37,913 nt of DNA from a virus (Duplodnaviria > Heunggongvirae > Uroviricota > Caudoviricetes), in IMG/VR virus record IMGVR_UViG_3300009093_000042, positions 64,001 through 101,913 of that record; one strand, 5' to 3'. This document shows, one piece after another, positions 674-34,335 of the stretch. A program made the translations under genes and the position numbers. Each line of letters opens with the position of its first letter. The first letter of the stretch is position 1. The notes beneath the pieces were generated by a model. That model saw nothing but the letters and a program-made list of their open reading frames with translations, ran no database searches and was not told the DNA's origin.

Positions 674-1377
674 TGAGTGAACGGAAGGGACAGCGAGAAC
701 GTGGACTGGCTGATCTTCGACAGAAACGTGGCGTTGACGGTCACCGACCGGTTGGCCTGCTTCTGGATTTCAAAGGTCTGGAGGCTGACACGCGGCTCGA
801 ACTGGTTCAGGGCGTCGGTGATCTCTTGACGAATGACGGTCGTGATTGAGTCCGTGCTCGGCTGGAAAACGGCGCGCCGCAGGAGCGTGCCGTAGGTTGG
901 CTGCATGATCCGCTCACCTTTAGTCGTGATCAGCAGCATTTTCACCGAGGACTTCAACACGTCCAGGTTGGTGCCGAGGTTGAAGTTCCACTGCTGAGCA
1001 TTCGGGAATCCGCTATCGAGCGGAAGAATCGGACCAAACAGATAATCCTGCGGCACCGGGATGCGCGTCTCCGGCTGAACCTCCACAGAAAAGTAAACAG
1101 ATTTTTGTTCGCGCTTGGGTTGAGCGTAATTGAAAGCCGTGAGCGTGATGTAGTAGGTGCCGTAGAAAAGGTTCCGCGTGGTGTCGATGTTGATCGGCTT
1201 CGCGGGAGTGAACACAACAGGCGGAGTGCCGTCGTTCCAGTCGAGCGTGGCTCCGACCACACTCAACGCGGGATTGGTTTCCGTGACGACGGCCTGGATT
1301 CGCACGGGAGAGTAATTCTTTCCCGGCAGCACCATGGCGCTGATCGTACGCTCCGTTTGTGTTGTGATAGTGACCAT
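670..1377 (-). CDS. Baseplate wedge gp25-like protein with N-terminal PKD/Ig-like domain
   Basis: C-terminal LKSSVKMLLITTKGERIMQPTYGT..EITDALNQFEPRV is the gp25/W signature; N-terminal LDWNDGT..GTYYITLTAFN is PKD-like. Confidence 0.85.
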   Translation of the reverse strand: MVTITTQTERTISAMVLPGKNYSPVRIQAVVTETNPALSVVGATLDWNDGTPPVVFTPAKPINIDTTRNLFYGTYYITLTAFNYAQPKREQKSVYFSVEVQPETRIPVPQDYLFGPILPLDSGFPNAQQWNFNLGTNLDVLKSSVKMLLITTKGERIMQPTYGTLLRRAVFQPSTDSITTVIRQEITDALNQFEPRVSLQTFEIQKQANRSVTVNATFLSKISQSTFSLSLPFTQ

Positions 1378-3329
1378 TAGCTCATCCTTTCAGGATAAAA
1401 CTGGCGATAGGGTCCTAGCGGTTCAGCGGGTTTTTCAGACTCATTGAGCGGTTGCGCGCCGTTCATCGAGACCGTGGTGCCGGTGGCCTGGTTGTTCTCA
1501 CCGGTGTCAGCGCGCTTCATGTGCAGCGGGTGCTGGCCGTAAGATGAAACGACGAGGTCAAAGTCTTTGAGCTGCCGTTTGATGTGCAGGCTTTCCTGCT
1601 TGAACATGTTTTCGTACATCCGGCGTTGAGCGCGGGTGTGCGCCACATCTCCAGCGCCTTTGATGGACGACTTCAATTCCTCGACGAGCTTCACCAGCGA
1701 ACCGTCCTGGCGCACTTTGTCTTCCAGCTCGCGCAGAATCTTGTAGGTGTACGGAGCGGGACGACGATTTTGTAAACTTTCTGTGGCTGGTTCCTGGATG
1801 TCGGTCGGGAGCGCGGTGATGAACATCGTCACCACGTCATCCGGCAAGTGCATGTAGCGTTTGAAGATGGTCTCGATCCAGGCTTCACGCGGCAGGTTGT
1901 ACTTCTGCATCACGTCGGCCAGGATGTCGAGGACTTCGGCGTGCTGGCGCAGCATCTCCAGTTTCATCTGGTCTTCCAGTGAGCCGATGGGTGCCATGCA
2001 GGCGCGGATGTCCATCTCGCGGATGTCTTTGCCTTTGAGCACGGCGTGGAAATATCCGAGCCACGTGTACGTGTTGATGATGGGAGCGCGAATGCTTTTG
2101 ATCTTTCGCAGGAACCGCATGTCCTGGGCGAGAAGGGCTTTGCCGCTCATGGCCTGTTCGCCGCCAGCGCTGCCCGTCTTGGCTCCGAACCACGATCTCG
2201 GCATACCGATGATCGAGTAAAAGAGGTCCGTCAATAGTTCGATGTCGTAAACATCAGGAACGTTTTGCGTGCCCTGCATCTTCTCGATGGCGTGCTCGAA
2301 ACCCGTGGGTTTGGCGACCCAGAGAATGGTGTCGAGCGACCACGCGTTGTAAAACGACTGGAATCCGGCTGGATCGGTCAGCTCGTTCGTGAGGCCGGTG
2401 CTGCCCTGGTTGGCGAGGCCGAAGGAAAGCTTGCTGCGCAGGGTCTGCTTCCAGCGCTGGACTGTTTTCATTTGGTCCATGGGCGTCTGGTCCTTCGTGT
2501 CGATGTTGATCACGTAGCGGTCCGGCTGCACCTGGGCGCGATGAACGACCATCTGGTCAATGGCCAGGCGCAGCTTTTTGTAGATGCCCTGCGCTTCGTC
2601 AAAGATCGGTTCGCCGTGTTCGCTGATGCGCAAGCGATACATGCGGCGGAAGTGGAGCATGTCCCAGGGATACCAAAGTTCTTCCACGTTCTGGCCGTCG
2701 CTGATGGCGACGCGTTCGATGGGAGTTTTGTTGTCCGGGTGGACGAAGGCGGCTTCCTTGCTTGGTTTGTGGCCGCTCCAGCGGTAGCCGACGCACTTGC
2801 GGTTGCGCTCCAGCCAGTAGCGGCGCACGTCCATGGGATGCACGAAGGACATGCCCATGACGCCTTCGCCGGGCGCGTACTCCAGCTTTTCGAAATGGTT
2901 GCCGAGCGCGGCCAGGTAATAGACCTGGGAATAAATCAGTTCCTCGCTGTTGAGTTCGAGGAGCATTCCGTTGAGATCATCTTCGAAGTCGCGGTCGTTG
3001 CACTGGAACCAGATTTTGGCCGGGCTGTTCTGGTCGGTCTGCGTAGCTTCGTCAACAATTTCTACTAGCGCCGCCGCCATCAGGTCCCATCCGGCCATTT
3101 CGTCCCAGAGCTGGAGCATGGCGTCGAAAGTGACCGGTCGCCGCATGTAGGCGTTGAACCTTGACCACACATCCGGGTTCGCAACACGGCCAGCGTCCTG
3201 GAAGTCCTTGAAAAGCTCTTGGTCCGCCGTAGGGGTTCCGGCACGCGGGACGAGACTTCCGGTCGGCTGGCCGGATGTGCCGATGAGGCCCATGTACTTT
3301 AGCAGGGACGTGGCTGTAGTGTTTGCCAT
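1377..3329 (-). CDS. Portal protein (T4 gp20-like)
   Basis: 650 aa. LEIVDEAT, YGEP-like HGEPIFDEA, KKLRLAIDQMVVHRAQVQPDRYVINID and PDVYDIELL..LFYSIIGMP segments are typical of T4-type portals. Confidence 0.9.
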   Translation of the reverse strand: MANTTATSLLKYMGLIGTSGQPTGSLVPRAGTPTADQELFKDFQDAGRVANPDVWSRFNAYMRRPVTFDAMLQLWDEMAGWDLMAAALVEIVDEATQTDQNSPAKIWFQCNDRDFEDDLNGMLLELNSEELIYSQVYYLAALGNHFEKLEYAPGEGVMGMSFVHPMDVRRYWLERNRKCVGYRWSGHKPSKEAAFVHPDNKTPIERVAISDGQNVEELWYPWDMLHFRRMYRLRISEHGEPIFDEAQGIYKKLRLAIDQMVVHRAQVQPDRYVINIDTKDQTPMDQMKTVQRWKQTLRSKLSFGLANQGSTGLTNELTDPAGFQSFYNAWSLDTILWVAKPTGFEHAIEKMQGTQNVPDVYDIELLTDLFYSIIGMPRSWFGAKTGSAGGEQAMSGKALLAQDMRFLRKIKSIRAPIINTYTWLGYFHAVLKGKDIREMDIRACMAPIGSLEDQMKLEMLRQHAEVLDILADVMQKYNLPREAWIETIFKRYMHLPDDVVTMFITALPTDIQEPATESLQNRRPAPYTYKILRELEDKVRQDGSLVKLVEELKSSIKGAGDVAHTRAQRRMYENMFKQESLHIKRQLKDFDLVVSSYGQHPLHMKRADTGENNQATGTTVSMNGAQPLNESEKPAEPLGPYRQFYPERMS

Positions 3330-3389
3330 ATTCGTTTTTAACTACCAAAAAGAACTGAAAGCTTCGTGGACAAATCCGTTCTATCTTCC

Positions 3390-3602
3390 ATGGCTGACAA
3401 GACGCTTAAAGAACATATCGTTTCCTTCCGAATCCCGAAGGACCAGGCCGCCGTGGTCGTGAAGATGCTGAAGGAGCAACCGATCATCGGCGTAAAATCT
3501 GTGAACCAGTTTTTCCGCAAGCTCGGAAGGGACTACCTCGCGGGCCGCATGTCCTATAAAAATCCCCAGGACATGCTCGTCGATACCGACATCAGTGGGT
3601 GA
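3390..3602 (+). CDS. Small ribbon-helix-helix-like DNA-binding protein
   Basis: HIVSFRIPKDQAAVVVKML..SVNQFFRKLGRDYL fits strand-helix-helix. Start moved to ATG 3390, preceded by GTTCT-N7. Confidence 0.55.
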   Translation: MADKTLKEHIVSFRIPKDQAAVVVKMLKEQPIIGVKSVNQFFRKLGRDYLAGRMSYKNPQDMLVDTDISG

Positions 3603-3921
3603 TGGGTTCGACCCGTTTGATGCAATGCGTCACCGGGTTTAGGTGGAATTCCACCATCATCGCGAAAGTGGACGGGCTTTCGTGATCAGCCACACGACAG
3701 GGGATTTTCAGTTTAATCGTTTCGGGATCGGCACTCTCAACAAGCACCAGGTCAGGACGTAATGGTTCTGGATGGTGCTTGACTGCTTCCTCCACGGTGC
3801 GCCGAAAGCAACCATGACGGCATTCCGATTGAATCCAGTCCAGCAGAGGAGGTTTGGGCACCTTTTCGTCTTCAATGAAGGTCCCGGCTATTTTCCGCAC
3901 GGTATCAGAAGGAGTACTCAT
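3592..3921 (-). CDS. Hypothetical protein, possible internal head protein
   Basis: ORF track, start moved to ATG 3921; DTVRKIAGTFIEDE resembles the motif shared by other small acidic proteins in the window. Confidence 0.6.
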   Translation of the reverse strand: MSTPSDTVRKIAGTFIEDEKVPKPPLLDWIQSECRHGCFRRTVEEAVKHHPEPLRPDLVLVESADPETIKLKIPCRVADHESPSTFAMMVEFHLNPVTHCIKRVEPITH

Positions 3922-4357: not shown

Positions 4358-4593
4358 GCTCTAACTACTTCACGCTTTTCAGCGTTTCGCTTGCGCAGAA
4401 AATAGCTGTTGAGCGCCGTCGCGAGGACACCCCTAAGCCAACTGTTGTTGATCTTGGGAGGGATACCGAAAAGCAACGGGTAATCGGCTGTGACTTCACA
4501 GACGACTTCGTTTCCCATTTGGATACTGCACAGCTTCACGTTATTAACTCTGCGTGTCTCACAGAACGAATTTGATCTGCCGTCTTTTCGCAT
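4354..4593 (-). CDS. Hypothetical protein
   Basis: 79 aa; fills the gap and is GTGA-coupled to the next gene; start uncertain. Confidence 0.45.
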   Translation of the reverse strand: MRKDGRSNSFCETRRVNNVKLCSIQMGNEVVCEVTADYPLLFGIPPKINNSWLRGVLATALNSYFLRKRNAEKREVVRA

Positions 4594-4645: not shown

Positions 4646-5692
4646 ATGCGTGTTTTGATTTATTCCGATGGTCAGGCCACAGACGGGCACGAGCGTTGCT
4701 TCACGCAGCCCGATAAGCCGCTCCAGTTGTGGAGGATCGAGCACCTTTACGCGGAGATTCAGCGCATCTATAACGAGCAGAAATGCGACGCTCTCTGGGA
4801 TTTGGGGGACACGACCGACGATCGTACGTCCATTCCTGTCTCCGTGATCGACCTGATGTGCGACGCCCTGGAGGCTTTTGACGGCAAATGGAACCTGAAG
4901 CTGGTCGGTAATCACGAACAATTTTTGCGGGACACCCGCATTCACGCAGGCAAGATGTTCCGTCATTTTTTCCATGTCGTGGATTCCTGCGAGACGATCA
5001 AGTGTGGAAAAGTAAACATTTTGTGCATCAGTTACCACGATGACGTGAACACGATCATCGACTTTCTGCGGCGCGCACCCAAGACCAAGCCGTGCGTGAT
5101 TATCGGCCATTTCCAGGTGGCAGGCTGCCAGATGAATTCCGGCGTGGCCGCTACCGGCGTCCCTCGCGAAATGCTGGAATTTGCCAACGTCGTTCTCCTC
5201 GGTCATATCCATAAACCGCAGTCGTTGGGGACCGGCTTCATCCATTACGTGGGATCACCGTTTCAGCAGAACTGGGGAGAATCTGGTGAGAATAAGCGCG
5301 TGGGAATCCTGGACATCACCGACGAGGCGATCCGGCTGGAGTGGGTGCCGCTGGAGGGTTTCCCGCGCTATCGCCAGGTCGGCTTTCAGGAGTTTTGCCA
5401 GCTCGTGAATGAGAAGTCGGAAGATCGCTATAAGGTCGTGCTGAACAGCCTGGATGAGACGGAGCAGTTCTACGCTCACCCGTTGTTTAACCGCGCTGAT
5501 GAGGCGATCTACGCTTACGACATTCCACCAGCAGACGCGCCCAAGGCGGATGAGCCGGTGACCACCATTCCGCGCAGCAAGCGGGACGTGCTCGTTAAGT
5601 ACATGGAAAAGTTTCCACCGGCTGTTTCAGGCATCCAGTTGGATAATGACGCCATGCTGGAGTTTGGAGAGTCGATCACAAATCATTTATGA
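4646..5692 (+). CDS. Recombination nuclease, T4 gp47/Mre11/SbcD-like metallophosphoesterase
   Basis: Motifs SDGQ (variant of DxH), LGDTTDD, GNHE, GHF, GHIH and YVGSPFQQNWGE. Confidence 0.9.
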   Translation: MRVLIYSDGQATDGHERCFTQPDKPLQLWRIEHLYAEIQRIYNEQKCDALWDLGDTTDDRTSIPVSVIDLMCDALEAFDGKWNLKLVGNHEQFLRDTRIHAGKMFRHFFHVVDSCETIKCGKVNILCISYHDDVNTIIDFLRRAPKTKPCVIIGHFQVAGCQMNSGVAATGVPREMLEFANVVLLGHIHKPQSLGTGFIHYVGSPFQQNWGESGENKRVGILDITDEAIRLEWVPLEGFPRYRQVGFQEFCQLVNEKSEDRYKVVLNSLDETEQFYAHPLFNRADEAIYAYDIPPADAPKADEPVTTIPRSKRDVLVKYMEKFPPAVSGIQLDNDAMLEFGESITNHL

Positions 5693-5947: not shown

Positions 5948-6352
5948 ATGAAATCGCGCCATATTCTTCTCCTTTCAATCGTCGCCCTGCTCACGGGCTG
6001 CAAGGTACCGACCGCCGTGATCAGCAGCACTCAAACTTGTCTCGGGGTCAGCGTTCAGGAAAATCCAGCGACTCAGCTTTACGAAGCTCGCCTCGGGTAC
6101 GCTCGAAATGAGTTCGCTTACGTGCCAGGCAACACGAACTGTCCAACGTCTGTCCCCGACGTGATTCTGGAGCTGAAGGTGAATAACATTTTTGGCGGCG
6201 GCATGATCTATCAGCGCTTGGCCGTTGGCGCGGTCGCCTGTGCGCAACCGGGAGCGTCGCTGATGTTTTCCAAGGATTCCACCGGCAGTTTTGGAACCAA
6301 TTTGGTTCAGCAGCTCCCGCTTTTGTTTCCGAAAGCTCCGACCACGAAATAG
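5948..6352 (+). CDS. Lipoprotein, paralog of the upstream lipoprotein
   Basis: MKSRHILLLSIVALLTGC with LTGC lipobox; shares LG.SV..LG..VP.N.N..V.LE pattern with 5689..5940. Confidence 0.75.
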   Translation: MKSRHILLLSIVALLTGCKVPTAVISSTQTCLGVSVQENPATQLYEARLGYARNEFAYVPGNTNCPTSVPDVILELKVNNIFGGGMIYQRLAVGAVACAQPGASLMFSKDSTGSFGTNLVQQLPLLFPKAPTTK

Positions 6353-6492
6353 TAAACAATTTATTTCGCGGCCAATACGATTAAGTCTTAATTGTATTGG
6401 AAAACGAAGTGGAAATAAAAGTGCTTACGTGTGAATAAACACGCGCCCCAGGTCAGACCGAAGGGTGCTGAAAACAAAAACACAAGCACACT

Positions 6493-7811: not shown

Positions 7812-7986
7812 AGACGGCGTCGAGGACTTTGCGCTGCCATTCCAGACAGCGCGGACAAGTGACGTGGGCGCAGATGGAGGAACTTTTCACGAAATTGATG
7901 TCCTCACCACAGGCAATTTTATGCCCTGGGCCGTCAGCATCTGCGCCCCGGTCGCGAACTTTTTGATGGATGATCTCGGTGCTCAC
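7774..7986 (-). CDS. Small His/Cys (possible zinc-binding) protein
   Basis: HKIACG..VTCPRC; GTGA-coupled to the co-chaperonin gene. Confidence 0.55.
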   Translation of the reverse strand: MSTEIIHQKVRDRGADADGPGHKIACGEDINFVKSSSICAHVTCPRCLEWQRKVLDAVFTPLPEKSGEAA

Positions 7987-8579
7987 TTCAGGGTCAGCGC
8001 GCCGTCGATGAATAATTGGTCCACGAAACAGAGTTCATCGTTGTCGATGACGATGGGGTTGACGCGACCACGGTGAGGAAAGACTTCCTGGCCAGCGTAC
8101 AGGTCGAGCTGAACGTCTTTGCCCATCTGCACCACACTGAAATGGGTGCTCTCCTTTTTGGCTTCTTCAGCAGTGTCAGGCACGATGATGATTTGATCCT
8201 TGGCTTTGCGCACCGTGGGGCGCAGCAGCGCGAAACGACCAGCAATGTGGAAATTTTCCAGCGCGATCACGTTTTTGTCGAGTTTGGCGATCACGTCGGC
8301 CACGTTCAAAAAGATGTGGATGACACCGCCGATTTCATGTGCAATCAATCCGGCTTGGTGCTGCGGGAGCTGGAACAGGACAATCTGTCCAGGCTGAAAT
8401 TCTTCCAGGGTGGATTCCCGGCCCTCGTAGCCGAATTTATCCAGACTTCCAGTGCATACGACTTCGGCGAGATCGTAGAGCTTGGACCGGCTGGCGGGCA
8501 GTTCGAGGCCGCCGCGCAGCTTGGCTTTTTCTTCGAGGCGTTTGACGGCTATTTTACCAGGAGCAAGTTTCAATTTCAT
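7983..8579 (-). CDS. groES: Tandem two-domain GroES/Cpn10 co-chaperonin (Cpn20-like)
   Basis: Domain 1: KIAVKRLEEKAKLRGGLELP..EVVCTG..FQPGQIVLF..IGGVIHIFLNVADVIAKL. Domain 2: IIIVPDTAEEAK..VVQMG..LYAGQEVF..IVIDNDELCFV. Each aligns by eye with GroES. Confidence 0.85.
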   Translation of the reverse strand: MKLKLAPGKIAVKRLEEKAKLRGGLELPASRSKLYDLAEVVCTGSLDKFGYEGRESTLEEFQPGQIVLFQLPQHQAGLIAHEIGGVIHIFLNVADVIAKLDKNVIALENFHIAGRFALLRPTVRKAKDQIIIVPDTAEEAKKESTHFSVVQMGKDVQLDLYAGQEVFPHRGRVNPIVIDNDELCFVDQLFIDGALTLK

Positions 8580-8597: not shown

Positions 8598-8615
8598 TAA
8601 ATTGTTTACAATTTA
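8598..8615. promoter_or_regulatory. Operator-like inverted repeat TAAATTGT-TT-ACAATTTA, best copy of the dispersed WGTWWACW box
   Basis: Perfect 8-bp arms with 2-nt spacer, at the primase stop and upstream of the GroES gene. Confidence 0.6.
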
Positions 8616-9673
8616 TTTCCAGAGTGGGCTGCCACTCTCCGGCCATGGTCAGTTTCCGCGAGGTTGATTTTTACTTTTCTGGCTGTGGGTTTTGACCGGT
8701 TGTGGACCGCCGTGAGTCCGGCGATAACGTCGTCGTTTGCGTCGTTTGTTGTCCGAGCAGTACCATCAGGATTGATTCCCGGTGGCATGGCGGCCACGGT
8801 CATCGGCATGATCGAGTTGAGATTCAGAGCGGTTTCTTCGGCCAGGTGGGTCGAGTCGCTGTCGAACAACAGGCACCACTCTTTGACGTGCTTGTAGCGC
8901 AACATTTTGAACACCTGTGAGCGGGTGATGAAGTGGGTAAAGACGCATATCGGCATTGCGTATTCCAGGAGGTTTCCTTCACGCAGTTTCCGTTTCAGCG
9001 ACAGGTAGTTGAGGATGGATTCGACGATGATCACCAGTTCGATGGATGGGGTGCGCAGAGCGTCGAGGCCATAAATCCAGTAGCTGGCTCCGTACGGCAC
9101 GATTTTCTTGCTTGGGAATTTTTTGGTCTTGTCGAACCCTTCATCTGAGTACGTGCGTCCCTGGTAGTAAACCGTTCGCGGGCCTTCGCGCACCGGGAAG
9201 ATGCAGAATGGTTCCCACTCTCCTTCGCGGGTGAAACCGGCTCCGGCCTCCTCCAGGTCTTCGATGCCCAGGTGCTTGCGCTCAGCCATGTTTTTGCAGA
9301 ACTTCCAGTAACAGCTCTTTCGGTTTTCGATTAGCGGTAGGAACCCTGAAGGCAGTGGGACCTCTTGGATCGGAGTTAGAGCTTTTTCCGGCTTTTCCGC
9401 GAGGATTGTCCGCAGCTCGTCTGGCTCCAGGATGGCATTGTCTTCGAGGTCAATACCTAACAGGCGGAACAGGCTTTTTACGTGCCTCGGTTGAGTAGTT
9501 CTGCTGCAACGCCAGCAGTTTGTCCGCTGTGTCTTGAGGTTGATGGAGCGGTTACCGGTCAGGTCGCCACAGCCCGGCACCGGGCAGATGATCATCAATT
9601 CTTCACTGGTGGACCTCTCTTTGACCACTTGGAAGTTTGACGAAATTTCGATTTTAAGCCGGTCGGGACTCAT
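8606..9673 (-). CDS. DNA primase (zinc-binding domain plus TOPRIM; T4 gp61/DnaG-like)
   Basis: CPVPGC..NCWRC zinc ribbon, YYQGR, TOPRIM IIVES and LLFDSD motifs. Confidence 0.85.
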   Translation of the reverse strand: MSPDRLKIEISSNFQVVKERSTSEELMIICPVPGCGDLTGNRSINLKTQRTNCWRCSRTTQPRHVKSLFRLLGIDLEDNAILEPDELRTILAEKPEKALTPIQEVPLPSGFLPLIENRKSCYWKFCKNMAERKHLGIEDLEEAGAGFTREGEWEPFCIFPVREGPRTVYYQGRTYSDEGFDKTKKFPSKKIVPYGASYWIYGLDALRTPSIELVIIVESILNYLSLKRKLREGNLLEYAMPICVFTHFITRSQVFKMLRYKHVKEWCLLFDSDSTHLAEETALNLNSIMPMTVAAMPPGINPDGTARTTNDANDDVIAGLTAVHNRSKPTARKVKINLAETDHGRRVAAHSGNKL

Positions 9674-9689
9674 CAGTAGTTAGAACGTT

Positions 9690-10671: not shown

Positions 10672-11787
10672 ATGGACTTAAACGCGACATTTTGCGGAAC
10701 AGTCGAGGATAATAAAGACCCTGAAAAACTGGGCCGTTTGAAAGTCCGTGTCCCGTTGGTCTATGGCTGCGTGGGTGGATTTTTCGGTGCGATCACGACA
10801 AATGACCTTCCATGGGCGCTTCCAGCCGGTCTTCCGAATGGTCTCAGCCAGCAAAGCGGCGGCGCTGACTGGACACCTGAGATCGGGGACCAGGTGCTTG
10901 TCCGTTTTCTTGACGGCGAGCCGGAGAAACCGATCTGGGAGTGGTTCATGCAGACGCAGGCCGCCGCTGAGGACTTCCAGCTTCATGCCTATAACACCAA
11001 CGCCAATGGCAGCGTAGGCGGTCCCAAGCGTGGGGCCTGGGTGCGCTACGGCCACACGCTGGAGTGGAACAAGGACGGCGTGATCATGACCACCAGCAAG
11101 GGTTATCGCGTGCTCTTGACGGATGCGAGCAGCGCTGGAAACGATGGCGACATCACCATTGAGACCCAGGCAGGCCAGTTCCTGGAGTTTGACGATTCGG
11201 TCAATGGCGGCACGATGAACGTCAACGAGGACTTCCAGATGAACATCGGGAAGCAGCTCCTGGCTCTGTGTGACAGCATCAGCCTTCAGTCCCAGGGAAA
11301 TGAGATCGAGTTCATCAGTGGAAAATACCTCTCCATCGAGACTCAGACTGATCTCAAGGGCACCGTCCACCAGGACTGGACCATGGGCGTGGACGGGAAA
11401 ACGAATTTTACGCTGACTGGTGATTATGCCTTGACCGGTTCAGGCAAGGTCTCGATGTCGGCGGCGGCAGACCTGGTGCTCAGCTCCACCCAGAATACCA
11501 CCATTAAAGCTACAGGCACGCTCGGGATCAGCAGCGCGGCCCAGATGAATATCCAGTCTCAGATCGACATGAATCTGGCGTTTACCCGGTTGGTGCTCGG
11601 CCAGGGAGCGTCTTCGCCGTTTGTTTTGGGAGACCAGTTGCTGGCGTATCTCGAACAAATGGTGACCATTCTGCTGACGCACACGCACACCGGCGTTACC
11701 TCGGGCGGCAGCAGCACCGGTCCCATGGTGCCTCCACTGACACTGCCGACGCCTGCCTTGCTCAGCCAGATTATCGTCGGAAAATAG
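10672..11787 (+). CDS. Baseplate central spike (gp5/gpV/VgrG-like OB fold plus beta-helix)
   Basis: GTVEDNKDPEKLGRLKVRVP and PEIGDQVLVRFLDGEPEKPIW OB-fold motifs; C-terminal HTHTGVTSG apex motif. Confidence 0.9.
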   Translation: MDLNATFCGTVEDNKDPEKLGRLKVRVPLVYGCVGGFFGAITTNDLPWALPAGLPNGLSQQSGGADWTPEIGDQVLVRFLDGEPEKPIWEWFMQTQAAAEDFQLHAYNTNANGSVGGPKRGAWVRYGHTLEWNKDGVIMTTSKGYRVLLTDASSAGNDGDITIETQAGQFLEFDDSVNGGTMNVNEDFQMNIGKQLLALCDSISLQSQGNEIEFISGKYLSIETQTDLKGTVHQDWTMGVDGKTNFTLTGDYALTGSGKVSMSAAADLVLSSTQNTTIKATGTLGISSAAQMNIQSQIDMNLAFTRLVLGQGASSPFVLGDQLLAYLEQMVTILLTHTHTGVTSGGSSTGPMVPPLTLPTPALLSQIIVGK

Positions 11788-11815
11788 TTTACAAAGTTTT
11801 TCCGTTCTACTCGCT

Positions 11816-18127: not shown

Positions 18128-18216
18128 AACAAGTCGTCTTCTCTTTTATTTACTCCCCGTGACTGCCAAATCTTCGGCCCGTTTTTGTAAACATTATTCG
18201 TTGTCTGCTTCTCATC

Positions 18217-20575: not shown

Positions 20576-20594
20576 ATTGTAACTAGCTTAGAAC

Positions 20595-24612: not shown

Positions 24613-24636
24613 CGCCTTAAATACGTTCTCTTGGTC

Positions 24637-26586
24637 ATGGCTGACCTCAAGATCAAGAGCATCAAGATCAGGAACTGGATGACCATCCGGGAAGCGGACA
24701 TCGCATTCCCCGAGAAAGGGTTAATCCTGGTCCTCGGATCGAACCTGGCTTCTGACGGAAAAATGCAGAGTGTCGGCTCAGGAAAAACCGGTCTCGGGGA
24801 GGCACTGTCCATCGCACTGGCCGGAGTAAAAGGACGTTACGGAGAGTTTGGTCACTACGCGGAAGATCGCGGCGGGAAGGACATGTACGTGAAGGTGGAG
24901 TCCAGCCTGCTGGCCAAGCCGCTGACGGTGGAGATGGGTTTCAAATGCGCGGAACTTTCGAAGACCGGTGAGGGTCTGAAGTTCACGTACGCGGACAAAC
25001 CTTCGGTTCAGCGCGGCGACCCAGACCAGACGCGGCGCGAGCTTCAACGCATGATTCGTGTGACGCCGGAATTGGCCAACTGGACAGTGTTTCTCAGTGG
25101 CGTCCGGTTGAACTTCGACAAAATGTCTCAGGATAATTCCGTGAATTTGCTGATGTCAGCTCTGGCGCAGCCGCCTTGGACAGAATACTTCGAACTAGCG
25201 AAGGCTAAGCTTCAGGCAGCTAACCGTCAGTTGGCGGTTTCAGCCCAGGCTCTGGAATCAGCCCGGATGCGCGAAAAGAATGCTGCGGATGATCTCAGCG
25301 ACGCGGTCGAGGAGCACAAACAGGCTCAGGAAGATTATCAGCGCCAGTTGGAACAGCAGTCGGACCGTCTCGCGGAACTGAAGCGCCAGAACGGTGCGGA
25401 CCTTTCGGCGATCTCAGGGGCCGAAAAGGAAATGACGAAAATAAAGAAGCAGCTCGCGCTCCTGGAGGAGCAGAAGGCGACGCAGAATCATCAGTGGGAA
25501 ATCCAAAAACAGAACCTGCGGGATGACCTGGCAGAGCTGGATGAGAAGCGATTGACGGCGGCGGAAAAGCGCACGGAGGCGAACAGCAAGTATAACGATC
25601 TGGATGATCAGCTCGCCAAGATGAAGAAGGTGCCAAAGAATTGTCCCACCTGTAAAAAACCATGGGATAAGGCGCACAGCGAGGAGGAGTTAGCGAAGAT
25701 GGAGGAAGCTTTGGAAAAGGCCGGTAAGGTCTGTGACCAGGCCGACAAAGTCTATTCTGACATCGACAAAAAGCGCCGGGAGATCAACGACAAGATCGGT
25801 CAAATCGAGCAAAAGATGCGGACCCAGGGACACGTTGCCGATGTGCGCCATCTGGGTGATCTTTATACGGCCCAGGAACGACTGATCCGAAATCTGAACA
25901 CTTCGATCCATGAGCGCGAGTTGAAAATTGTGAAGCTGGCGGACGGGGTTGACAAAAGTTTTGTAAACAAAAAATCGGCTGTCGTTGAGGAGAGGACGCG
26001 GGCGCTGGCGAAAGCCAAGGAGGCGATTGAAACATCGGCTTCTGATTTGGCGATGGACGAGGAGGTCGTCAAAGCGGTGCAATACTGGTACCGGGCCTAC
26101 GGACCGACCGGCATCCCGAATATGATTTTGAGTGAGGCTATTCCGCTGATGAATCGCGTGGCGCGCCGCATTTCAGCCATGATGACCGGAGGCACGCTGG
26201 AGATCAACTACTCGACGACAAAGGTCCTGGCGTCCGGGGAATCGCGCCAGAAGCTCATTACGAAGGTGAACAACCGCATCGGTAGCAAGCGGTCAGAAGG
26301 AAGCTCAAACGGCGAGGGCGGTCTTACGAATTTGATCATTGCTGAAAACCTCAATGAGATCGGACAGGTTTCGAACCGCGTCGGGTTCCGCTGGTACGAC
26401 GAGATCACCAACGGCCAGGACTCCGTGGTGCGCCGCAGCATTTTTGCCTACCTGAAGGAAGTGGCCGAACGTTTGGGCATCCTGGTGTTCGTTGTGGACC
26501 ACCATCCTGAAGTGGCCAGCTTTGCGGATTACGTGCTCGTGGCCGAGAAGTCCAGGGAGCACGGTACCCGCTATTTCTGGCGCTAG
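24637..26586 (+). CDS. Recombination ATPase, T4 gp46/Rad50/SbcC-like
   Basis: Walker A G.N..GSGKT, coiled coil with CPTC zinc hook, SSNGE signature, WYDE Walker B and VVDH switch; start at ATG 24637. Confidence 0.92.
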   Translation: MADLKIKSIKIRNWMTIREADIAFPEKGLILVLGSNLASDGKMQSVGSGKTGLGEALSIALAGVKGRYGEFGHYAEDRGGKDMYVKVESSLLAKPLTVEMGFKCAELSKTGEGLKFTYADKPSVQRGDPDQTRRELQRMIRVTPELANWTVFLSGVRLNFDKMSQDNSVNLLMSALAQPPWTEYFELAKAKLQAANRQLAVSAQALESARMREKNAADDLSDAVEEHKQAQEDYQRQLEQQSDRLAELKRQNGADLSAISGAEKEMTKIKKQLALLEEQKATQNHQWEIQKQNLRDDLAELDEKRLTAAEKRTEANSKYNDLDDQLAKMKKVPKNCPTCKKPWDKAHSEEELAKMEEALEKAGKVCDQADKVYSDIDKKRREINDKIGQIEQKMRTQGHVADVRHLGDLYTAQERLIRNLNTSIHERELKIVKLADGVDKSFVNKKSAVVEERTRALAKAKEAIETSASDLAMDEEVVKAVQYWYRAYGPTGIPNMILSEAIPLMNRVARRISAMMTGGTLEINYSTTKVLASGESRQKLITKVNNRIGSKRSEGSSNGEGGLTNLIIAENLNEIGQVSNRVGFRWYDEITNGQDSVVRRSIFAYLKEVAERLGILVFVVDHHPEVASFADYVLVAEKSREHGTRYFWR

Positions 26587-27435: not shown

Positions 27436-29745
27436 CTACGGGGCCAGTGCGCCCTTTTGGATCATGCTCTTGTCTTGGAGCATACGGAACTGCGCGGATT
27501 TTGCCAGTTTGTCTTTGTGGGTCTCCGCCATCTGCACGGCTTGGAAGGTGTCGCGCTGAGTGTTGGCGTCTTTCAGCAGCTTCTTCGCGCCGCCTGTGTT
27601 TTCGAGTTGCTGCTTGGTCAGCTCGATCATCTGACGGTCATGCTCCAGCGTGGCTTTCTCGTTGGAGGTCACTGTGGTTAGCGCGATGCGCTCGCGCACT
27701 TCGGCTGCCGTCTTCTTGTACAGCTTCATGTACCCTTCGGCGGCTTTCTCGCTATTCATTCCCTGGACCTTGAAAGCCTGGAGCCGGAAGATGCGCTCAG
27801 CTTCAGTGAAGTTTCCCTGGAGCATTTTCTTGCGGACTTCGGCCATCACGTCGAACGCGGTCTTTTGACCTGGCAGCGACTGAACCACGTTGGCGGTGTA
27901 GAACTTGTCAGATTGGACGGCCAGCGCCCGTGACCATTTTGCGATGATATTGTCGGGAAACTTTTTGTCGATCACCCGGCCAATGGCAAAGCCAGCGGCA
28001 CCAGCGGCAACGACCAGGAAGGCCGGGCTGCTGAGGAAGCCGAGCAAGCGTGAGAACAACGGCACCAGTTTGGAGACCGAGCTGGCCAGGCCACCACCGC
28101 TAAAGAGGCTTCCCAATCCGCCACCGCCCAGGATGCCACCGCCTGACTTAAGTCCCTGCATTCTTGTGGCGACGGCAGAGGCAGCGGCCACTTCGTAGAG
28201 AGCCACCGCAAGGCGCATCAGCGAGAAAGTGGTGCGCGCTGCGGCTGCCACGACGATGCCGGTGAAAATGTAAACGGTTGTTTTGTGCGAGGCCAGGAAG
28301 GAAACGAATTGTGCGGTGTAACCGAACAGCCCACGGATGGCCGGGAGCAGCGGCATGAACGCCTGCTGAATCAAAGAGACGAACGATTCTTCCAGTCGCC
28401 CGAGCGCCTTGTTTGCATTGGTGACTTGCTCACGCCAGCGCTGCTGGAGCTTCGCGTGTTCGTCCAGCGGTTTGTTGGACTCCGCAATCATGTCCTTGTA
28501 CAGCCGGACCGTTTCGGTGCTGGTGCCGATGACCTGGGCGGCAGCTTCGAGTTGAGCCGTGTAGGCCATTGTGCCAGGGCGCGCCGTGACGATCTTGTCG
28601 ATGAACCGACCCAGGCCCTGGAGCGCCTGCTGCGCGCCCTGTCCGCTGCCGAGCGCGCCGGGCGTGTTGACGCCAGAAAGACCCCGCAGCATGAATGCCT
28701 GCTGTGAGCCTTTCGTCATCTCGTTGAACAGCTTGACGACCTCGCCCGCGTCGCCGCCCACATCCTTCATGCGCGCCGCCATCATCGTGACGTAGCCAGC
28801 AGCTTCCCTTGCGCCCGGCGCGGCACCTGGTCCCAGGAGCCGTAAAGCTTTGCCGATCTCGGTCGCGAACCGCGTGGCTTCGTCGGCGGCCAGTGACGTG
28901 TTGTTCGCGATCACGGCGATCTGATCGGCGACTTCGCGCACGTTCACCTTCAGATTCACCTGGAAAATTCGGGCAAGTTGAGCCGAGTGCTCGAAGCTGA
29001 CGCCCAGGCCCTCCTCCATTTCCACCATCACTTCCAGGCTCTCTTTGAATCCGCGATGCGCCTTGGGCCAGATGTCCGTCAGCGAGCGCGCCGCCGCGTT
29101 CATGGTCTCAAAGGATGCGCCGGTTTTAGCCTGCACTTCGAAAATCTGTTTCGTGAGCCGGTCGCGTACGCTGGTCATCGAGTTCGCCTGGATGAGCGAT
29201 TGATTCAGCTCTCCGCTTTTCTTGATGGCTTCCGCGAAGCCTTTGATCAGCATGTACTCGATGGCCAGGTGCTTGCCGGTGACAGCCGAGATGGATTCCC
29301 GCAGAACGAGACGCTTTTGCTCCAGGTCGAGCAGGTTTTTGGCGTTGGTCAGATTCTCCTGCGCGAGTTTTTTGTAAACTTTAGCCTGGTCGATGCTGTC
29401 TTTGTCCGCCGTGGTGGACTTGCGTTTCTCGTCGTAAAGCCGCTTGTGCATCTTGAAGATGGACTCGGCTTCACGGAGTTCATCTTTTCGGGCTTTGATT
29501 GTTTCATTGATCACGTCTTTCGACGTGATCAGCGCCCGCGAAGCCTCTTTCAGTACCGGAGGCAGCTTCATGTTCTGAGCCAGGTACTCCGTGAAGCTGC
29601 GGTGGGTGTTCTGGGTCTGATGGTGCAACTCAGAAAAGTTTTCTGCAATCGAACGGCTCATCTTTTCGATGCGCTGAACGTCGTCAGCGAAAAGGTGCAG
29701 CCCCTTTCGCATTGCTTCCAACTGTTCTGCTCCGCTCAATGCCAT
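27436..29745 (-). CDS. Tape measure protein
   Basis: 769 aa; helical, A/L/K-rich, with a G-rich hydrophobic middle region; upstream of the tube initiator. Confidence 0.85.
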   Translation of the reverse strand: MALSGAEQLEAMRKGLHLFADDVQRIEKMSRSIAENFSELHHQTQNTHRSFTEYLAQNMKLPPVLKEASRALITSKDVINETIKARKDELREAESIFKMHKRLYDEKRKSTTADKDSIDQAKVYKKLAQENLTNAKNLLDLEQKRLVLRESISAVTGKHLAIEYMLIKGFAEAIKKSGELNQSLIQANSMTSVRDRLTKQIFEVQAKTGASFETMNAAARSLTDIWPKAHRGFKESLEVMVEMEEGLGVSFEHSAQLARIFQVNLKVNVREVADQIAVIANNTSLAADEATRFATEIGKALRLLGPGAAPGAREAAGYVTMMAARMKDVGGDAGEVVKLFNEMTKGSQQAFMLRGLSGVNTPGALGSGQGAQQALQGLGRFIDKIVTARPGTMAYTAQLEAAAQVIGTSTETVRLYKDMIAESNKPLDEHAKLQQRWREQVTNANKALGRLEESFVSLIQQAFMPLLPAIRGLFGYTAQFVSFLASHKTTVYIFTGIVVAAAARTTFSLMRLAVALYEVAAASAVATRMQGLKSGGGILGGGGLGSLFSGGGLASSVSKLVPLFSRLLGFLSSPAFLVVAAGAAGFAIGRVIDKKFPDNIIAKWSRALAVQSDKFYTANVVQSLPGQKTAFDVMAEVRKKMLQGNFTEAERIFRLQAFKVQGMNSEKAAEGYMKLYKKTAAEVRERIALTTVTSNEKATLEHDRQMIELTKQQLENTGGAKKLLKDANTQRDTFQAVQMAETHKDKLAKSAQFRMLQDKSMIQKGALAP

Positions 29746-29746
29746 A

Positions 29747-30262
29747 TCAGATTGCCTTTATAGTTTTGCCGTGGATGAAATAGGTTCCCCACGGCGCATT
29801 GAAAAATGAACCGTCCGGGTAGTCCCGCGTGCGCGCCAATTCAGCCATTCGGTCCTCGATCTGTTTGCGCGTGGTCTCGTCGAACGGGACTTTGAGGTCT
29901 ATCTTGTTTACAAAAATCTGATTACCGACCGGTACCTGGATGTTGTACGTCATTGAGCCGGGATCGGTGCCCATGCGGAGAAAGCTCTCGTCAGGATAAA
30001 CCTGGTATTCGAAGTATCCCTCCGTCTGTTCGTCTTCCAGGATGGCAGCTACGATCTGGCGCGCCGCCTCCTTGATCGCGTGCGGGACTTTTCCAGCCGC
30101 ATCGACATTGCTGAAGCCGTGCTTTTTGGCGCGCTGGCCGCTGACGGCTGCCGCCATGTCGATAAAGGATTGAGGCTGTTTTTTCATCGCGCTCAGGCCG
30201 TGCCTGCGGGCGTAAGTCTTTGCTTCCTTCGGGAGTGGAAGATTTTTTAGATCGTCTCTCAC
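29747..30262 (-). CDS. Hypothetical protein, probable internal head protein
   Basis: Contains IKEAARQIVAAILEDE; GTGA-coupled to the upstream gene. Confidence 0.6.
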   Translation of the reverse strand: MRDDLKNLPLPKEAKTYARRHGLSAMKKQPQSFIDMAAAVSGQRAKKHGFSNVDAAGKVPHAIKEAARQIVAAILEDEQTEGYFEYQVYPDESFLRMGTDPGSMTYNIQVPVGNQIFVNKIDLKVPFDETTRKQIEDRMAELARTRDYPDGSFFNAPWGTYFIHGKTIKAI

Positions 30263-30507
30263 ACGCCGTGCATCCGAAGAAGTGAGTTGGCCGAAGCGCG
30301 GATGGTCGTCATGTCATGCTGCTGATCCGGTGTCGCGTTGGGCAGGCTGGCCTGGAGCGTGTCCAGGGCGCTGAGGATGGACCGAGCCGAGTTCACTTCG
30401 GCTTGTTCATCGTCTTCCATAACCCGCTCGCTATCATCGTCGAGCACTTGCGACACGATCTTTTTCGCGGCCTCGGTCATCTGCTGCTTTTTGCTGGCGC
30501 TTGGCAT
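30259..30507 (-). CDS. Small acidic protein, probable internal head protein
   Basis: Contains MTEAAKKIVSQVLDDDSERVMEDDE; TAGATA upstream. Confidence 0.6.
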   Translation of the reverse strand: MPSASKKQQMTEAAKKIVSQVLDDDSERVMEDDEQAEVNSARSILSALDTLQASLPNATPDQQHDMTTIRASANSLLRMHGV

Positions 30508-30595
30508 AGTCTGTAATATCTACCCCGTCAGATCAGCTTCTCAGGCGTTGGTTTGCAGTCGTTCACAAGATTGTAAACAATTTCTATTATGGGTA

Positions 30596-30624
30596 TTGAC
30601 CGTTAAGAAAATTTTGTTTACATT
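30596..30624 (+). promoter_or_regulatory. Sigma70-like early promoter TTGACC-N17-TACATT
   Basis: -35 at 30596-30601 and -10 at 30619-30624; ATG only 8 nt downstream. Confidence 0.7.
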
Positions 30625-30632
30625 TTCTTCGC

Positions 30633-31784
30633 ATGATTGGAAAGAAATTCAAAGACATGGTGGATGACCTGGCCGCTCAGCATCCTCTCGCCTGGAAAGC
30701 AACCTACCCGCGCAACATCACCACTCCAGAAGGCTACGCTGATCCCAAGTATTATGCGGCCACCATGCTCGGGTGCCTCTTTTCCATCCAGGACCCGCGC
30801 ATGAGGGAGTTTGCCCACACCTGCGAATACCTGATGACGCTGGCTTTGATGCAGCACCGGGTTCCTACTTATTTCATTGCGCCGGAGTTCGCGTATTCCG
30901 TGGCTAATACCGATCTGCCGGGTGACTTCAAATTCATCGAACTGCTGTGGCCGCTTCCGGCGATGCTCTTTGTTTTGCCTGATGAATTCGTCAAAGATTA
31001 TTACGGATTTTACGCGCCGTTTCTGGCGGTTTCTAACACTCCCTCAGCGATTTATCCGAATTACTATAATCGGTTGCCGAAGATCAATATGCCGTATTTT
31101 GAGATGCAGGTAAACAAGGACCGGATCAACGTTGATTATCCCGTTTATCGGGTGAATGAGGTCCCCTGCGATTACAACGGCTCCTACCGATTGACGGATG
31201 GGGTGGAAGTTTTTCGATCTGCGCCGATGCACGATACGACGGAATGGGAGCAGCGTGTGCGCGGGATCACTGTAGCGCACGACGGCGAACCTCGTAAAGG
31301 GGAGGAGGAAATAGAGTTCATGGATAAAGCCGCGCAGCTCGCGGTGAAGATGCTGCTCACGATTGCCGCACTTCCGGCCATGATCGAAAATGGCAGAGTG
31401 ACCCGTCCGGCCAGGACCAACCAGCAGGGAAAACTGGTGCTGCCCGAGATGGTGTCACCAAACATGATCGGGCGCGCCTACCGCATTCCCAGGAAGTATT
31501 CGGAGCGGGCTGAGAGCGCTGGCAGCCGGGCCAAGCCGAGATTCGTTTATCGCCGAGGCCATTACACCTGGCAGGCGAAGCGTTTCAAAAACATCGAGTT
31601 TGTTTCAGTGAACCAGATGCCGCGCAAACTGGACGGTACGATCGACTTCGATACCGCAGGCGACGTGATGAGCAATAAGTTCCGGGCTTGCCACGAGCGC
31701 ATTCGAATTGAGGGCTTCCTTTTCGGGGATGTTGATCCTAATGAAGGTAAGGCTACCAGCAATGCCGGTGCCACTTCACAGTAA
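30633..31784 (+). CDS. Probable early protein with C-terminal RRGH motif
   Basis: 383 aa; KPRFVYRRGHYTWQ..RIRIEGFLFG resembles a common uncharacterised phage/plasmid C-terminal motif. Confidence 0.7.
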   Translation: MIGKKFKDMVDDLAAQHPLAWKATYPRNITTPEGYADPKYYAATMLGCLFSIQDPRMREFAHTCEYLMTLALMQHRVPTYFIAPEFAYSVANTDLPGDFKFIELLWPLPAMLFVLPDEFVKDYYGFYAPFLAVSNTPSAIYPNYYNRLPKINMPYFEMQVNKDRINVDYPVYRVNEVPCDYNGSYRLTDGVEVFRSAPMHDTTEWEQRVRGITVAHDGEPRKGEEEIEFMDKAAQLAVKMLLTIAALPAMIENGRVTRPARTNQQGKLVLPEMVSPNMIGRAYRIPRKYSERAESAGSRAKPRFVYRRGHYTWQAKRFKNIEFVSVNQMPRKLDGTIDFDTAGDVMSNKFRACHERIRIEGFLFGDVDPNEGKATSNAGATSQ

Positions 31785-31824: not shown

Positions 31825-31852
31825 TTGACACTGGGTGGAATTTGTTTACATT
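31825..31852 (+). promoter_or_regulatory. Sigma70-like early promoter TTGACA-N16-TACATT
   Basis: Shares TATTGAC and AATTT(T)GTTTACATT with the promoter at 30596. Confidence 0.7.
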
Positions 31853-31910
31853 GTTCGCGTAACGATGATTGAGCCGTGCTCAGTCGAGAAACAAAAACAA
31901 TAAAAAGCTT

Positions 31911-32693: not shown

Positions 32694-32715
32694 CCACCAA
32701 CCCGCCCCACCCCCA

Positions 32716-32741: not shown

Positions 32742-32757
32742 ACCCTAAAAGACCAGC

Positions 32758-33516
32758 ATGAGCGACGCATCAGATAAAAAACGGGAAGACCTCCTGGCCG
32801 AGATCACCAAGTGGGCCATGATCTCCAAAGCTCCAGACCCGATGCTGGAGTTGGAAATCGTGAAGTCCATCGACTTCCTTCGGAACAACGCCAAGGTCGC
32901 GCCCGATCAGATCGCCGCCCTGGAGAAGATGGTGCGCAATCCGGCTGAGCTGGTGTGGAGGCTCATGCCGCCGTTACCGGATGCTCCGTTGAAGTGGACG
33001 CCGTCGAATTATCAGGTGGATTGGTTCCGCGACATGATCGTCAAAGCCAAGGACGGCATGATGTGGAAGGTGCCAAGCACGGGCCAGGTCTATAAGATCG
33101 ACAAAGTAAACAAAACTTTCACGTTGGTCATCGACACGGACGACGACCACGACCGCTGGCATGACCGCAACAAGATGATCCTGGGGCTGCTCGGCTGGAA
33201 GATGATCGACAACAAGTCCAGTTCTAAGAGCTATACCGCGACCGATGGCAACTGGGTCATCGGTGTTTTTGATTTTTCAATCGCGGAGCAGACGAATCCG
33301 AAGACCGGTGAGAATTTTCCACCAGGGTCTCGTGGTCAGGACGCTGTGGCCACGTTGGGCAAGATGGCGGTCTTTGCGCGCCTGGGTCACGTGATCGGCG
33401 CGCATCTGTGGAAGTTCACTCAGAAGCAGGCTGACCCGGAAGCATTCGGGTCTGGCAAAACAAACGCAGCGTGGTTGAATATCAAGGAAAAGCATGGAAA
33501 CAACGAGTCAAACTGA
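32758..33516 (+). CDS. Hypothetical protein
   Basis: 252 aa ORF with genome-typical codon use. Confidence 0.75.
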   Translation: MSDASDKKREDLLAEITKWAMISKAPDPMLELEIVKSIDFLRNNAKVAPDQIAALEKMVRNPAELVWRLMPPLPDAPLKWTPSNYQVDWFRDMIVKAKDGMMWKVPSTGQVYKIDKVNKTFTLVIDTDDDHDRWHDRNKMILGLLGWKMIDNKSSSKSYTATDGNWVIGVFDFSIAEQTNPKTGENFPPGSRGQDAVATLGKMAVFARLGHVIGAHLWKFTQKQADPEAFGSGKTNAAWLNIKEKHGNNESN

Positions 33517-33790: not shown

Positions 33791-34055
33791 TGGTATCGGT
33801 TGGTCGATCGTACTGCTGTGGCTCTTTGAGTTCCTGTTCAGCACTGCCTTCGGCATGTTCGTGGTCTTCTCGCTCCTGTGGTGGATGTTCATTGGTCTCC
33901 TGGGTGGGGCTGTGATCAACACGCTCTGCGAGCTGCCAGTGAGCGGGGAACCCTGGTTTCTCTGTCTCAGTGCCGTGATCGCGTTGGTCTGTGGGTTTGT
34001 CTCGATGAGGAAGACCTGTGGTCCGTCAACGACCGTTCCGCCCGATGATGACTAA
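33753..34055 (+). CDS. Small integral membrane protein
   Basis: Two to three long hydrophobic segments (IGWSIVLLWLFEFLF.., FVVFSLLWWMFIGLLGG, WFLCLSAVIALVCGF). Confidence 0.55.
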   Translation: MKSHKSLLSRAVNGIGWSIVLLWLFEFLFSTAFGMFVVFSLLWWMFIGLLGGAVINTLCELPVSGEPWFLCLSAVIALVCGFVSMRKTCGPSTTVPPDDD

Positions 34056-34086
34056 TTTAGGACCGTGGCCGGTCCTTGTATAAGCG

Positions 34087-34118
34087 CAGCCTGCTGAGTG
34101 ATCTCGGCAGGCTGTTTT
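34087..34118 (+). terminator. Intrinsic terminator closing the early block
   Basis: CAGCCTGCTGAG-TGAT-CTCGGCAGGCTG-TTTT; a second hairpin AGGACCG-TGGC-CGGTCCT lies at 34059-34076. Confidence 0.8.
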
Positions 34119-34299
34119 AGTTTCGATCCTTGCCGCCGAGCGCTGCCACCAGTTCCTGGACAATGCCGCGTAGATCAAGCGCCGGTACGATCTCGGCCCG
34201 GTAACCCGTGGCTGTCACCTGGTAGGCTCCGCCGTGAACCGGCTGGTAGCAAACCCATCCTTCTTTGCAGCGCACGAATGTTTTTGATTGCTCAGCCAT
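34117..34299 (-). CDS. Hypothetical protein (60 aa)
   Basis: Preceded by TAATTA-N4. Confidence 0.6.
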   Translation of the reverse strand: MAEQSKTFVRCKEGWVCYQPVHGGAYQVTATGYRAEIVPALDLRGIVQELVAALGGKDRN

Positions 34300-34335
34300 G
34301 CTCTAATTATCCAGGAGAGGAAAAAGTTTACAAAT

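Follow-up and report, generated by a model that had tools for sequence, protein, structure and literature searches.

A selectively maintained GTAAAC word dispersed through a T4-like jumbo phage genome: candidate recognition sites of a phage-family protein that overlap early promoters

Introduction

What keeps the same A/T-flanked GTAAAC word at dozens of places, within and between genes, in the genome of a large tailed phage? We addressed this question in the final 37.9 kilobases (kb) of a 101.9-kb contig from an uncultivated virus of the class Caudoviricetes (IMG/VR record IMGVR_UViG_3300009093_000042, positions 64,001 to 101,913; 37,913 nucleotides (nt), G+C content 55.6%), hereafter called the window. 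On the evidence of shuffled controls and related phages, the word is a selectively maintained, working DNA signal. The reading that we tentatively prefer, to which we give slightly less than an even chance, is that its copies are recognition sites of a sequence-specific, probably dimeric, protein of this phage family, and that these sites overlap the early promoters.

By gene content, the source phage is a T4-like myovirus of the jumbo class. The structural genes of the window encode a gp23-family capsid protein (34388-35842, minus strand), a prohead protease, a T4-type portal and a gp25-like wedge protein, and there are further genes for a gp5-like hub, sheath and tube proteins and SbcC- and SbcD-like proteins. 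The sheath and capsid proteins were also found on a 245-kb contig. Isolated phages gave no near DNA match and only distant sheath matches (at most 27% identity), but metagenomic relatives were many; a search of viral contigs with the sheath and of genome contigs with the portal found no relatives. For six relatives (A to F, sheath 62-85% identical), the DNA around the sheath, capsid and portal genes was compared, and nine IMG/VR loci were added to this set. A site was called strong when at least 9 of the 12 bases flanking the GTAAAC core were A or T. The contig has 88 GTAAAC cores, of which 37 are strong, and 18 of the strong sites lie within the window.

Enrichment and structure of the word

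The preliminary description of the window had listed 19 sites in which GTAAAC or GTTTAC is bounded by A or T (W) on both sides, and every coordinate was exact, as was the density of about one site per 2 kb. Dinucleotide shuffles of the window gave 1.4 ± 1.2 such sites (largest 5), and a stricter form, WWWGTAAACWWW, has 16 copies in the window where 0.07 would be expected. The words TGTAAACA (24 vs 2.3) and GTAAACAA (28 vs 3.0) were the most over-represented 8-mers of the whole contig under an order-3 Markov model. The count of 13 further cores with a G/C flank was reproduced too. Eleven sites were said to lie inside genes, which agrees with our gene calls (10 with A/T flanks, plus 18089), and the three codon strings given as examples were correct. 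The consensus WGTWWACW, in turn, was found to be too degenerate: the centre is always AA or TT, and GTATAC and GTTAAC have 0 copies in the 102-kb contig. The A/T-tract setting holds at 18 of the sites in the window and fails at 18089; this site is probably a chance match, because its flanks are not A/T-rich and four of five relatives have lost it.

Shuffles that keep both the amino acids and the codon usage of each gene had been proposed as the control that could overturn the finding, and they did not: with 1000 shuffles per gene, 0.55 ± 0.73 strong intragenic sites (largest 4) were obtained against 10 in the window, and 1.7 W-flanked intragenic sites against 11.

When the sites were aligned on the core, the conserved element was longer than first described. 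It reads A-A-W-W-T-GTAAAC-A-W-W-T-T, a near-palindrome of 16-17 base pairs (bp), in which the left flank (A at -5, A at -4, W at -3, W at -2, T at -1) mirrors the right flank (A at +6, W at +7, W at +8, T at +9, T at +10), and there was no conservation outside these ~17 bp. The core itself is rigid. Among hexamers with at least 9 of 10 flanking bases A or T, GTAAAC occurs 32 times and the best unrelated hexamer 3 times, and the only words that approach its count are those that overlap it. The 18 single-mismatch variants of the core were searched in the same flank context, and two of them occurred once each and the remainder not at all. A symmetric binder would be expected to leave such mirror-symmetric flanks, which a -10 hexamer read by a sigma factor would not give.

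The strong sites of the contig stand in both orientations, 22 between genes and 15 within them. Their density is uneven, with gaps at ~25-37 and 42-57 kb, in a contig that covers 102 of the ~245 kb. An element acting at the RNA level was ruled out, since both orientations are present on sense strands; no Rfam family and no tRNA was found in the window.

Conservation in related phages

Conservation at synonymous positions in relatives had been proposed as a further check, and its result supports selection on the word. The core was kept at 26 of 30 orthologous strong sites, in comparison with 11 of 27 GTAAAC copies without A/T flanks (Fisher p=6e-4). At codons of conserved amino acids, silent third positions were identical in 95 of 113 cases (84%) within the motif and in 3632 of 6871 cases (53%) elsewhere in the same genes (p=6e-12). 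The sites at 1772, 5012, 19879, 21274, 23620 and 25963 are old, and those at 1093, 29374, 29906 and 33106 are lineage-specific. At 23620, relative E retains the peptide GMCKHI but breaks the word (ATG TGT AAG CAT ATC), which means that the protein does not need the word. An artefact of amino-acid or codon usage was thus excluded by the codon-preserving shuffles together with relative E, where the peptide is kept and the word is not.

In seven IMG/VR relatives, with portals 81-82% identical, the sites number 2.7-4.9 per 10 kb, and those of the portal and SbcD genes are among them. Outside the clade with A/T flanks, TGTnTACA was counted 181 times in 703 kb of DNA from distant family members, against 40 ± 6 in dinucleotide shuffles. 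Most of these copies have neither A/T flanks nor a promoter context, and many fall within coding sequence at positions that several clades share. Two distant relatives also carry inverted pairs of the form GTTTAC-N7-GTAAAC (L070, 11557-11575; L074, 4292-4310).

Sites in the window

The sites of the window are as follows, with the strand and the setting of each; letters A to F denote the relatives.

1088-1103, plus: GAAAA-GTAAAC-AGATT, in the gp25-like baseplate wedge gene (670-1377, minus); kept in A and not in B, hence younger.
1767-1782, plus: ATTTT-GTAAAC-TTTCT, in the portal gene (1377-3329, minus); kept in A, B and the seven IMG/VR relatives, with all silent positions identical.
5007-5022, plus: GAAAA-GTAAAC-ATTTT, in the SbcD/gp47-like gene (4646-5692, plus); kept in A, B (core alone), L090, L092, L093, L097 and L098.
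6347-6362, plus: AAATA-GTAAAC-AATTT, overlapping the stop codon of 5948-6352; kept in A, with an equivalent site in B.
8599-8614, minus: AAATT-GTAAAC-AATTT, the best consensus copy, between 8606-9673 and the GroES-like gene 7983-8579 (both minus), with the stop codon TAA within the core; A, B, C and D have sites at the equivalent position.
11782-11797, minus: a site overlapping a stop codon, at the end of the gp5-like hub gene (10672-11787) and upstream of 11816-12670; kept in A and C.
18084-18099, plus: TGTAAACT, without A/T-rich flanks (flank A/T 0.33-0.5), in the sheath gene; core lost in B, C, D and E.
18182-18197, plus: TTTTT-GTAAAC-ATTAT, 60 nt upstream of the sheath start codon at 18127 (minus); kept in A, B, C and D.
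19874-19889, plus: TAATT-GTAAAC-AAACT, in a gene for 117 amino acids (aa) (19587-19940, minus); kept in A to E (TTG TTT ACA ATT), with 20 of 22 silent positions identical.
21269-21284, minus: core TTGTTTAC, in a 447-aa gene (20894-22237, plus); core retained in B, C and D with altered flanks, lost in E.
23615-23630, minus: ACTTT-GTAAAC-ATATT, in a 440-aa gene (22760-24082, minus), codons CTT TGT AAA CAT ATT; all 6 silent positions are the same in B, C and D.
25958-25973, plus: GTTTT-GTAAAC-AAAAA, in the SbcC/gp46-like gene (24631-26586, plus); kept in B, C and F; the T at -7 of a -10 hexamer is missing in both orientations.
29369-29384, plus: in a 769-aa gene (27436-29745, minus); not kept in B, C and F.
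29901-29916, minus: in a 171-aa gene (29747-30262, minus); core without A/T flanks in B, lost in C and F.
30568-30583, plus: AGATT-GTAAAC-AATTT, within the gap between divergent genes at 30508-30632; the gene 30259-30507 (minus) starts 66 nt away.
30611-30626, minus: promoter -10 site (TACATT, 30619-30624) with -35 TTGACC (30596-30601), a spacer of 17 and ATG at 30633; a layout shared by relatives B and F. With the preceding site, 43 bp away, it makes up an inverted pair.
31839-31854, minus: promoter -10 site (TACATT, 31847-31852), CACTTTAACTATTGACA-N16-TACATT, -35 at 31825-31830, gene start TTG at 31869.
33101-33116, plus: in a 252-aa gene (32758-33516, plus); not kept in B and C, hence lineage-specific.
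34321-34336, minus: TATTT-GTAAAC-TTTTT, directly after the terminator of the major capsid gene (stem 34338-34369, minus).

The terminator beside the last site is a strong intrinsic one on the minus strand, immediately downstream of the major capsid gene, in which a stem of 14 bp leads into a T-run. A second hairpin (34086-34115, plus) closes the converging unit. In one distant relative (L073, 11504 and 20370), GTTTACA serves as a T4-style -35 just past the capsid-gene terminator, as GTTTACA-N16-TATATT or TATGTT.

Promoter context

A -35 element TTGAC(A/G/C) stands 16-17 nt upstream at 6 of the 37 strong sites of the contig and at 2 of the 18 in the window (30616 and 31844). All six are in the GTTTAC orientation, use TACAWT as -10 and have ATG or TTG 6-16 nt downstream, a distance that implies leaderless or near-leaderless mRNAs. 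The link of three sites to early promoters, as originally proposed, was borne out: 30616 and 31844 form -10 regions, and 30573 lies 43 bp from 30616. Since the word is superposed on the -10 of every recognisable early promoter, a role in the control of early transcription is suggested. Distant family members likewise have TGTATACATT, TGTCTACATT or CGTTTACAAT at the -10 place of promoters. As a whole, the early cassette reads CACTTT-N5-TTGAC(A/G)-N13-GTTTACAWT; it is seen in the window at 30596-30635 and 31825-31871 and elsewhere in the contig at 12960-13000, 18300-18340 and 20620-20660, and it recurs in relative B.

The other 31 sites, called orphans here, have -35 scores at background, like random DNA, and relative to genes 16 of them are co-oriented and 15 anti-oriented. 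Read in the GTTTAC orientation as a -10 hexamer, the word has A at -11 in all 37 sites and T at -7 in 24 of 37, namely in all six promoter sites and in 18 of 31 orphans. The 13 orphans without this T lack it irrespective of gene orientation, and several, including the conserved site 25963, lack it both ways. GTTTAC is also the -35 element of T4 early promoters, at -36 to -31 (PMC1524935). This reading was rejected here, as no site of the 37 has a -10 downstream: TAnnnT at 16-18 nt was found at 0 of 37 in either orientation (background 1.4%).

Other boxes stand closer to gene starts. Virion genes (portal, sheath, 9690, 9935 and 19937) have a GTAGTTA or GTAAATA box 4-19 nt ahead of the start, and in SbcD, the GroES-like gene, 8606-9673 and others a GTTCT box precedes the start by 7-8 nt (GTTCT-N7-ATG); examples of such start-adjacent boxes are 3330-3365, 4358-4370, 9674-9689, 18147-18153 and 20576-20594. 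No ribosome-binding site of the GGAGG type was seen in the window. At the sheath gene, the late-type box is GTAAATA (18147-18153), 19 nt before ATG (GTAGTTA in relative E), and the word stands ~30 nt further upstream, so that it is a separate element. In a hand tally, the sense strand mostly read GTTTAC in late operons and GTAAAC in genes of the GTTCT class (5:1 vs 3:7), a tentative lead from few sites. A fixed composite of the word with GTTCT-N7-ATG was ruled out by the variable spacing (6-12 nt) and mixed orientation.

Restriction avoidance and the central bases

The contig is wholly free of 37 of the 64 palindromic hexamers. Among them are GCCGGC (85 expected), GGCGCC (75), CGCGCG (69) and CAGCTG (65), as well as GTTAAC, GTATAC, CAATTG, AATATT and TTTAAA. 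Several non-palindromic words are absent too, with expected counts of 86 for CCCAGC, 51 for AGATCC, 49 for CTCTTC, 45 for CACCTC and 18 for GTAGAC/GTCTAC. As GTTAAC and GTATAC are both purged, a perfectly palindromic centre of the word is forbidden in this genome. The central base of this clade may be fixed as T/A because GTATAC and GTAGAC are among the purged restriction-type words. Relative B tolerates GTTAAC, and at the orthologue of 11787 it carries TTGTTAACAA, which has a palindromic centre. The idea that the AA centre is forced solely by restriction avoidance was found to be only partly true, as relatives that tolerate GTTAAC still use GTAAAC at their A/T-flanked sites by 65 to 2.

Candidate binding proteins

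Two small proteins of the window had been put forward as the binders:

3390-3602, plus: 70-aa protein of ribbon-helix-helix (RHH) likeness, candidate binder with a homodimer model and weak RHH/DUF3950 leads.
326-673, minus: 115-aa HU/IHF-like protein, candidate binder (PHROG 379, E=6e-8).

Neither could be linked to the sites. Both have homologues in L095/L096, which are relatives without the A/T-flanked motif.

The monomer models were of low confidence for both (predicted local distance difference test score, pLDDT, 61 for the RHH-like and 58 for the HU-like protein). The homodimer model of 3390-3602 scored 0.68, with 0.00 for the best control; three runs shared at least 87% of contacts, and the partner pLDDT was at least 69. 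Among proteins solved as one-chain pairs, 20 of 30 attain the mark used for this score, and among those solved as single chains, 1 of 23. In the model, the closest contacts pair residues 17-24 of both copies as an antiparallel ribbon, as in RHH proteins; 3390-3602 is thereby modelled as an RHH-type dimer, a result that may only reflect its likeness to solved RHH dimers. The 326-673 protein scored 19.9 bits against Pfam Bac_DNA_binding, under the cut-off of 22.4, and its low-confidence fold model has a helix-helix-beta-arm arrangement. Sequence searches of the PDB with the candidate binders gave no match, a Pfam scan of the 82-aa gene beside the paired sites gave no hit, and among the window proteins scanned there was no hit to the TetR, ParB and MatP families.

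Discussion

How, then, is the word read? The preliminary description saw in it a network of protein-binding sites, and this is the best reading here too; nothing here shows that the network organises, segregates or protects the genome, as it proposed, and no regional bias of the SlmA, Noc or MatP type is visible in the 102 kb of the contig. The rigid core, mirror flanks, indifference to orientation, silent-site conservation and lack of promoter partners fit a symmetric reader of double-stranded DNA better than a sigma-70 -10. We infer the binding by a protein, its dimeric state and the effect of binding from these features of the sequence. One family-encoded, probably two-fold symmetric DNA-binding protein would read the 16-17-bp site, whose 8-bp heart is TGTnTACA. 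Its occupancy on the early-promoter -10 (GTT-TACAWT) would block or modulate the host sigma-70 RNA polymerase, for example in early-gene shut-off, and the ~30 orphan copies would be additional binding sites that act as roadblocks, titrate the protein or help to organise the DNA.

Several observations weigh against this protein-site reading. Recognisable sigma-70-type early promoters of every clade examined build their -10 from the word in one orientation (GTnTACAWT), and such a fixed overlap would also suit an extended -10 read by RNA polymerase, for which it is the main argument; four more intergenic sites in the early region of the contig also face genes and have TACAWT. The persistence of the AA centre in relatives that tolerate GTTAAC means that strict two-fold symmetry is not proven. 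The presence of both candidate proteins in relatives without the A/T-flanked motif means that co-occurrence does not discriminate.

An extended -10 is in fact the rival that must be taken most seriously, although we regard it as unlikely. Under this explanation the word is purely a signal for RNA polymerase (G-15 T-14 n T-12 A-11 C A W T-7), which together with a -35 makes a strong early promoter and alone makes either weak promoters (internal, antisense or bidirectional) or pause sites that depend on sigma, with A/T flanks that help melting in G+C-rich DNA. It would account for the six sites with a -35, which all use the word as -10 in a single orientation with ATG or TTG 6-16 nt on, and for the GTnTACAWT -10 in promoters of distant relatives; T4 early promoters, too, have a GT-rich stretch 5' of -12 (PMC1524935). 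But 31 of the 37 sites have no -35 and are oriented at random to genes, the T at -7 is absent from 13 of these 31, and two orphans, 23620 and 25963 (the latter, with several others, lacking this T both ways), are among the best-conserved sites. The invariant G-15, C-10 and A-9 and the mirror flanks are foreign to sigma-70 -10 recognition, the TG is one base off the register of the classical TGn, and distant relatives keep the word in a G+C-rich coding context that is ill-suited to promoter melting. A late or middle promoter recognised by a sigma factor of the phage, akin to the T4 late promoter but shifted towards G+C (TGT-AA-ACA vs TAT-AA-ATA, no -35), is very improbable. The rigid 8-bp core without a -35 does resemble T4 late promoters (PMC1524935), and the word is one base from the GTAAATA box before the sheath gene; however, the direction of GTAAAC relative to genes is random (7 of 22 intergenic and 8 of 15 intragenic sites), as is the distance, the virion genes have boxes of their own (GTAGTTA/GTAAATA) at a short, fixed spacing from the start, and the capsid gene has no such site upstream.

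The tolerance of essentially no single mismatch in the core is more typical of enzymes than of operators, and together with the spacing of about one site per 2-3 kb, in both orientations and in genic and intergenic DNA, it would suit the target of a DNA-processing enzyme. Such an enzyme could be a nicking or cleaving one (cf. the nicks of T5-like genomes) or a phage type II topoisomerase, or the word could be the loading site of a replication, recombination or HerA/FtsK-type translocase. We consider this improbable: no strand or polarity bias is seen as at loading sites of the FtsK/KOPS type, and the -10 position at all recognisable early promoters would be left unexplained.

Comparison with known systems

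Dispersed regulatory networks built on a single word are documented mainly for temperate mycobacteriophages and P1. The C1 operators of P1 are many copies of one ~17-bp operator across a large phage genome and control separate units, which is similar to the present case; unlike the word, they are asymmetric, located at promoters and serve lysogeny. The dispersed palindromic sites of chromosome systems (SlmA-SBS, Noc-NBS, MatP-matS and ParB-parS, 12-16 bp) are also often intragenic, but they mark chromosome regions and are bound by known families, and here no regional pattern was found in the 102 kb of the contig and no such family among the window proteins scanned.

The stoperators of Cluster A mycobacteriophages, bound by repressors of the L5 gp71 type, share with the word the use of one rigid clade-specific sequence in more than 20 copies, a subset of which lies in early promoters (PMC9283540); here there are 37 copies in 102 kb, of which 6 coincide with the -10 of a promoter. 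A stoperator is an asymmetric 13-mer to which a monomer binds, placed in a short intergenic gap and strictly oriented with transcription (PMC9283540), whereas the word has symmetric flanks, 15 of 37 sites within genes and random orientation, and its phage is T4-like and presumably lytic. T4 early promoters resemble the early promoters here in being strong, of sigma-70 type, in a T4-like phage and GT-rich just upstream of -12 (PMC1524935); they differ in that GTTTAC here is at -15 to -10 and most copies are away from promoters. The T4 late promoter TATAAATA, which depends on gp55, gp33 and gp45, is likewise a rigid 8-bp pseudo-palindrome with an AA centre and no -35, two transitions apart from the word. 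T4 late promoters face genes at a fixed distance and the word does not; here that role is filled by GTAGTTA/GTAAATA.

It is possible, though we think it rather doubtful, that a jumbo-phage family shares a genome-wide TGTnTACA word through which a putative core protein couples early promoters to dozens of intragenic sites, as a lytic counterpart of the stoperators. If true, a symmetric and largely intragenic network that shapes silent codon positions across a widespread group of environmental T4-like jumbo phages would be a new layer of genome control or handling in lytic giants. The 16-bp word (AAATTGTAAACAATTT) is a concrete bait for its protein, and the case also shows how restriction avoidance can narrow the choice of bases in a regulatory site.

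Other observations

A second word is over-represented in the contig, as GATCGTAC (23 copies vs 3.4 expected) and CGATCGTA (16 vs 1.6). About 8 kb ahead of the window start, positions 55449-55975 of the contig (C1) form a gene-free stretch of 527 bp with tandem units of ~22 bp that contain CCATCCGACTTTGC. In relative D (L004, 1686-4073), the homologue of 22760-24082 holds an intein with a LAGLIDADG domain (795 aa vs 440 aa), and so does the homologue in another relative (the record behind P0020). In relative B (L002, 6710-7225), a gene for an HNH_3 endonuclease is inserted between the orthologues of 20595-20891 and 20894-22237.

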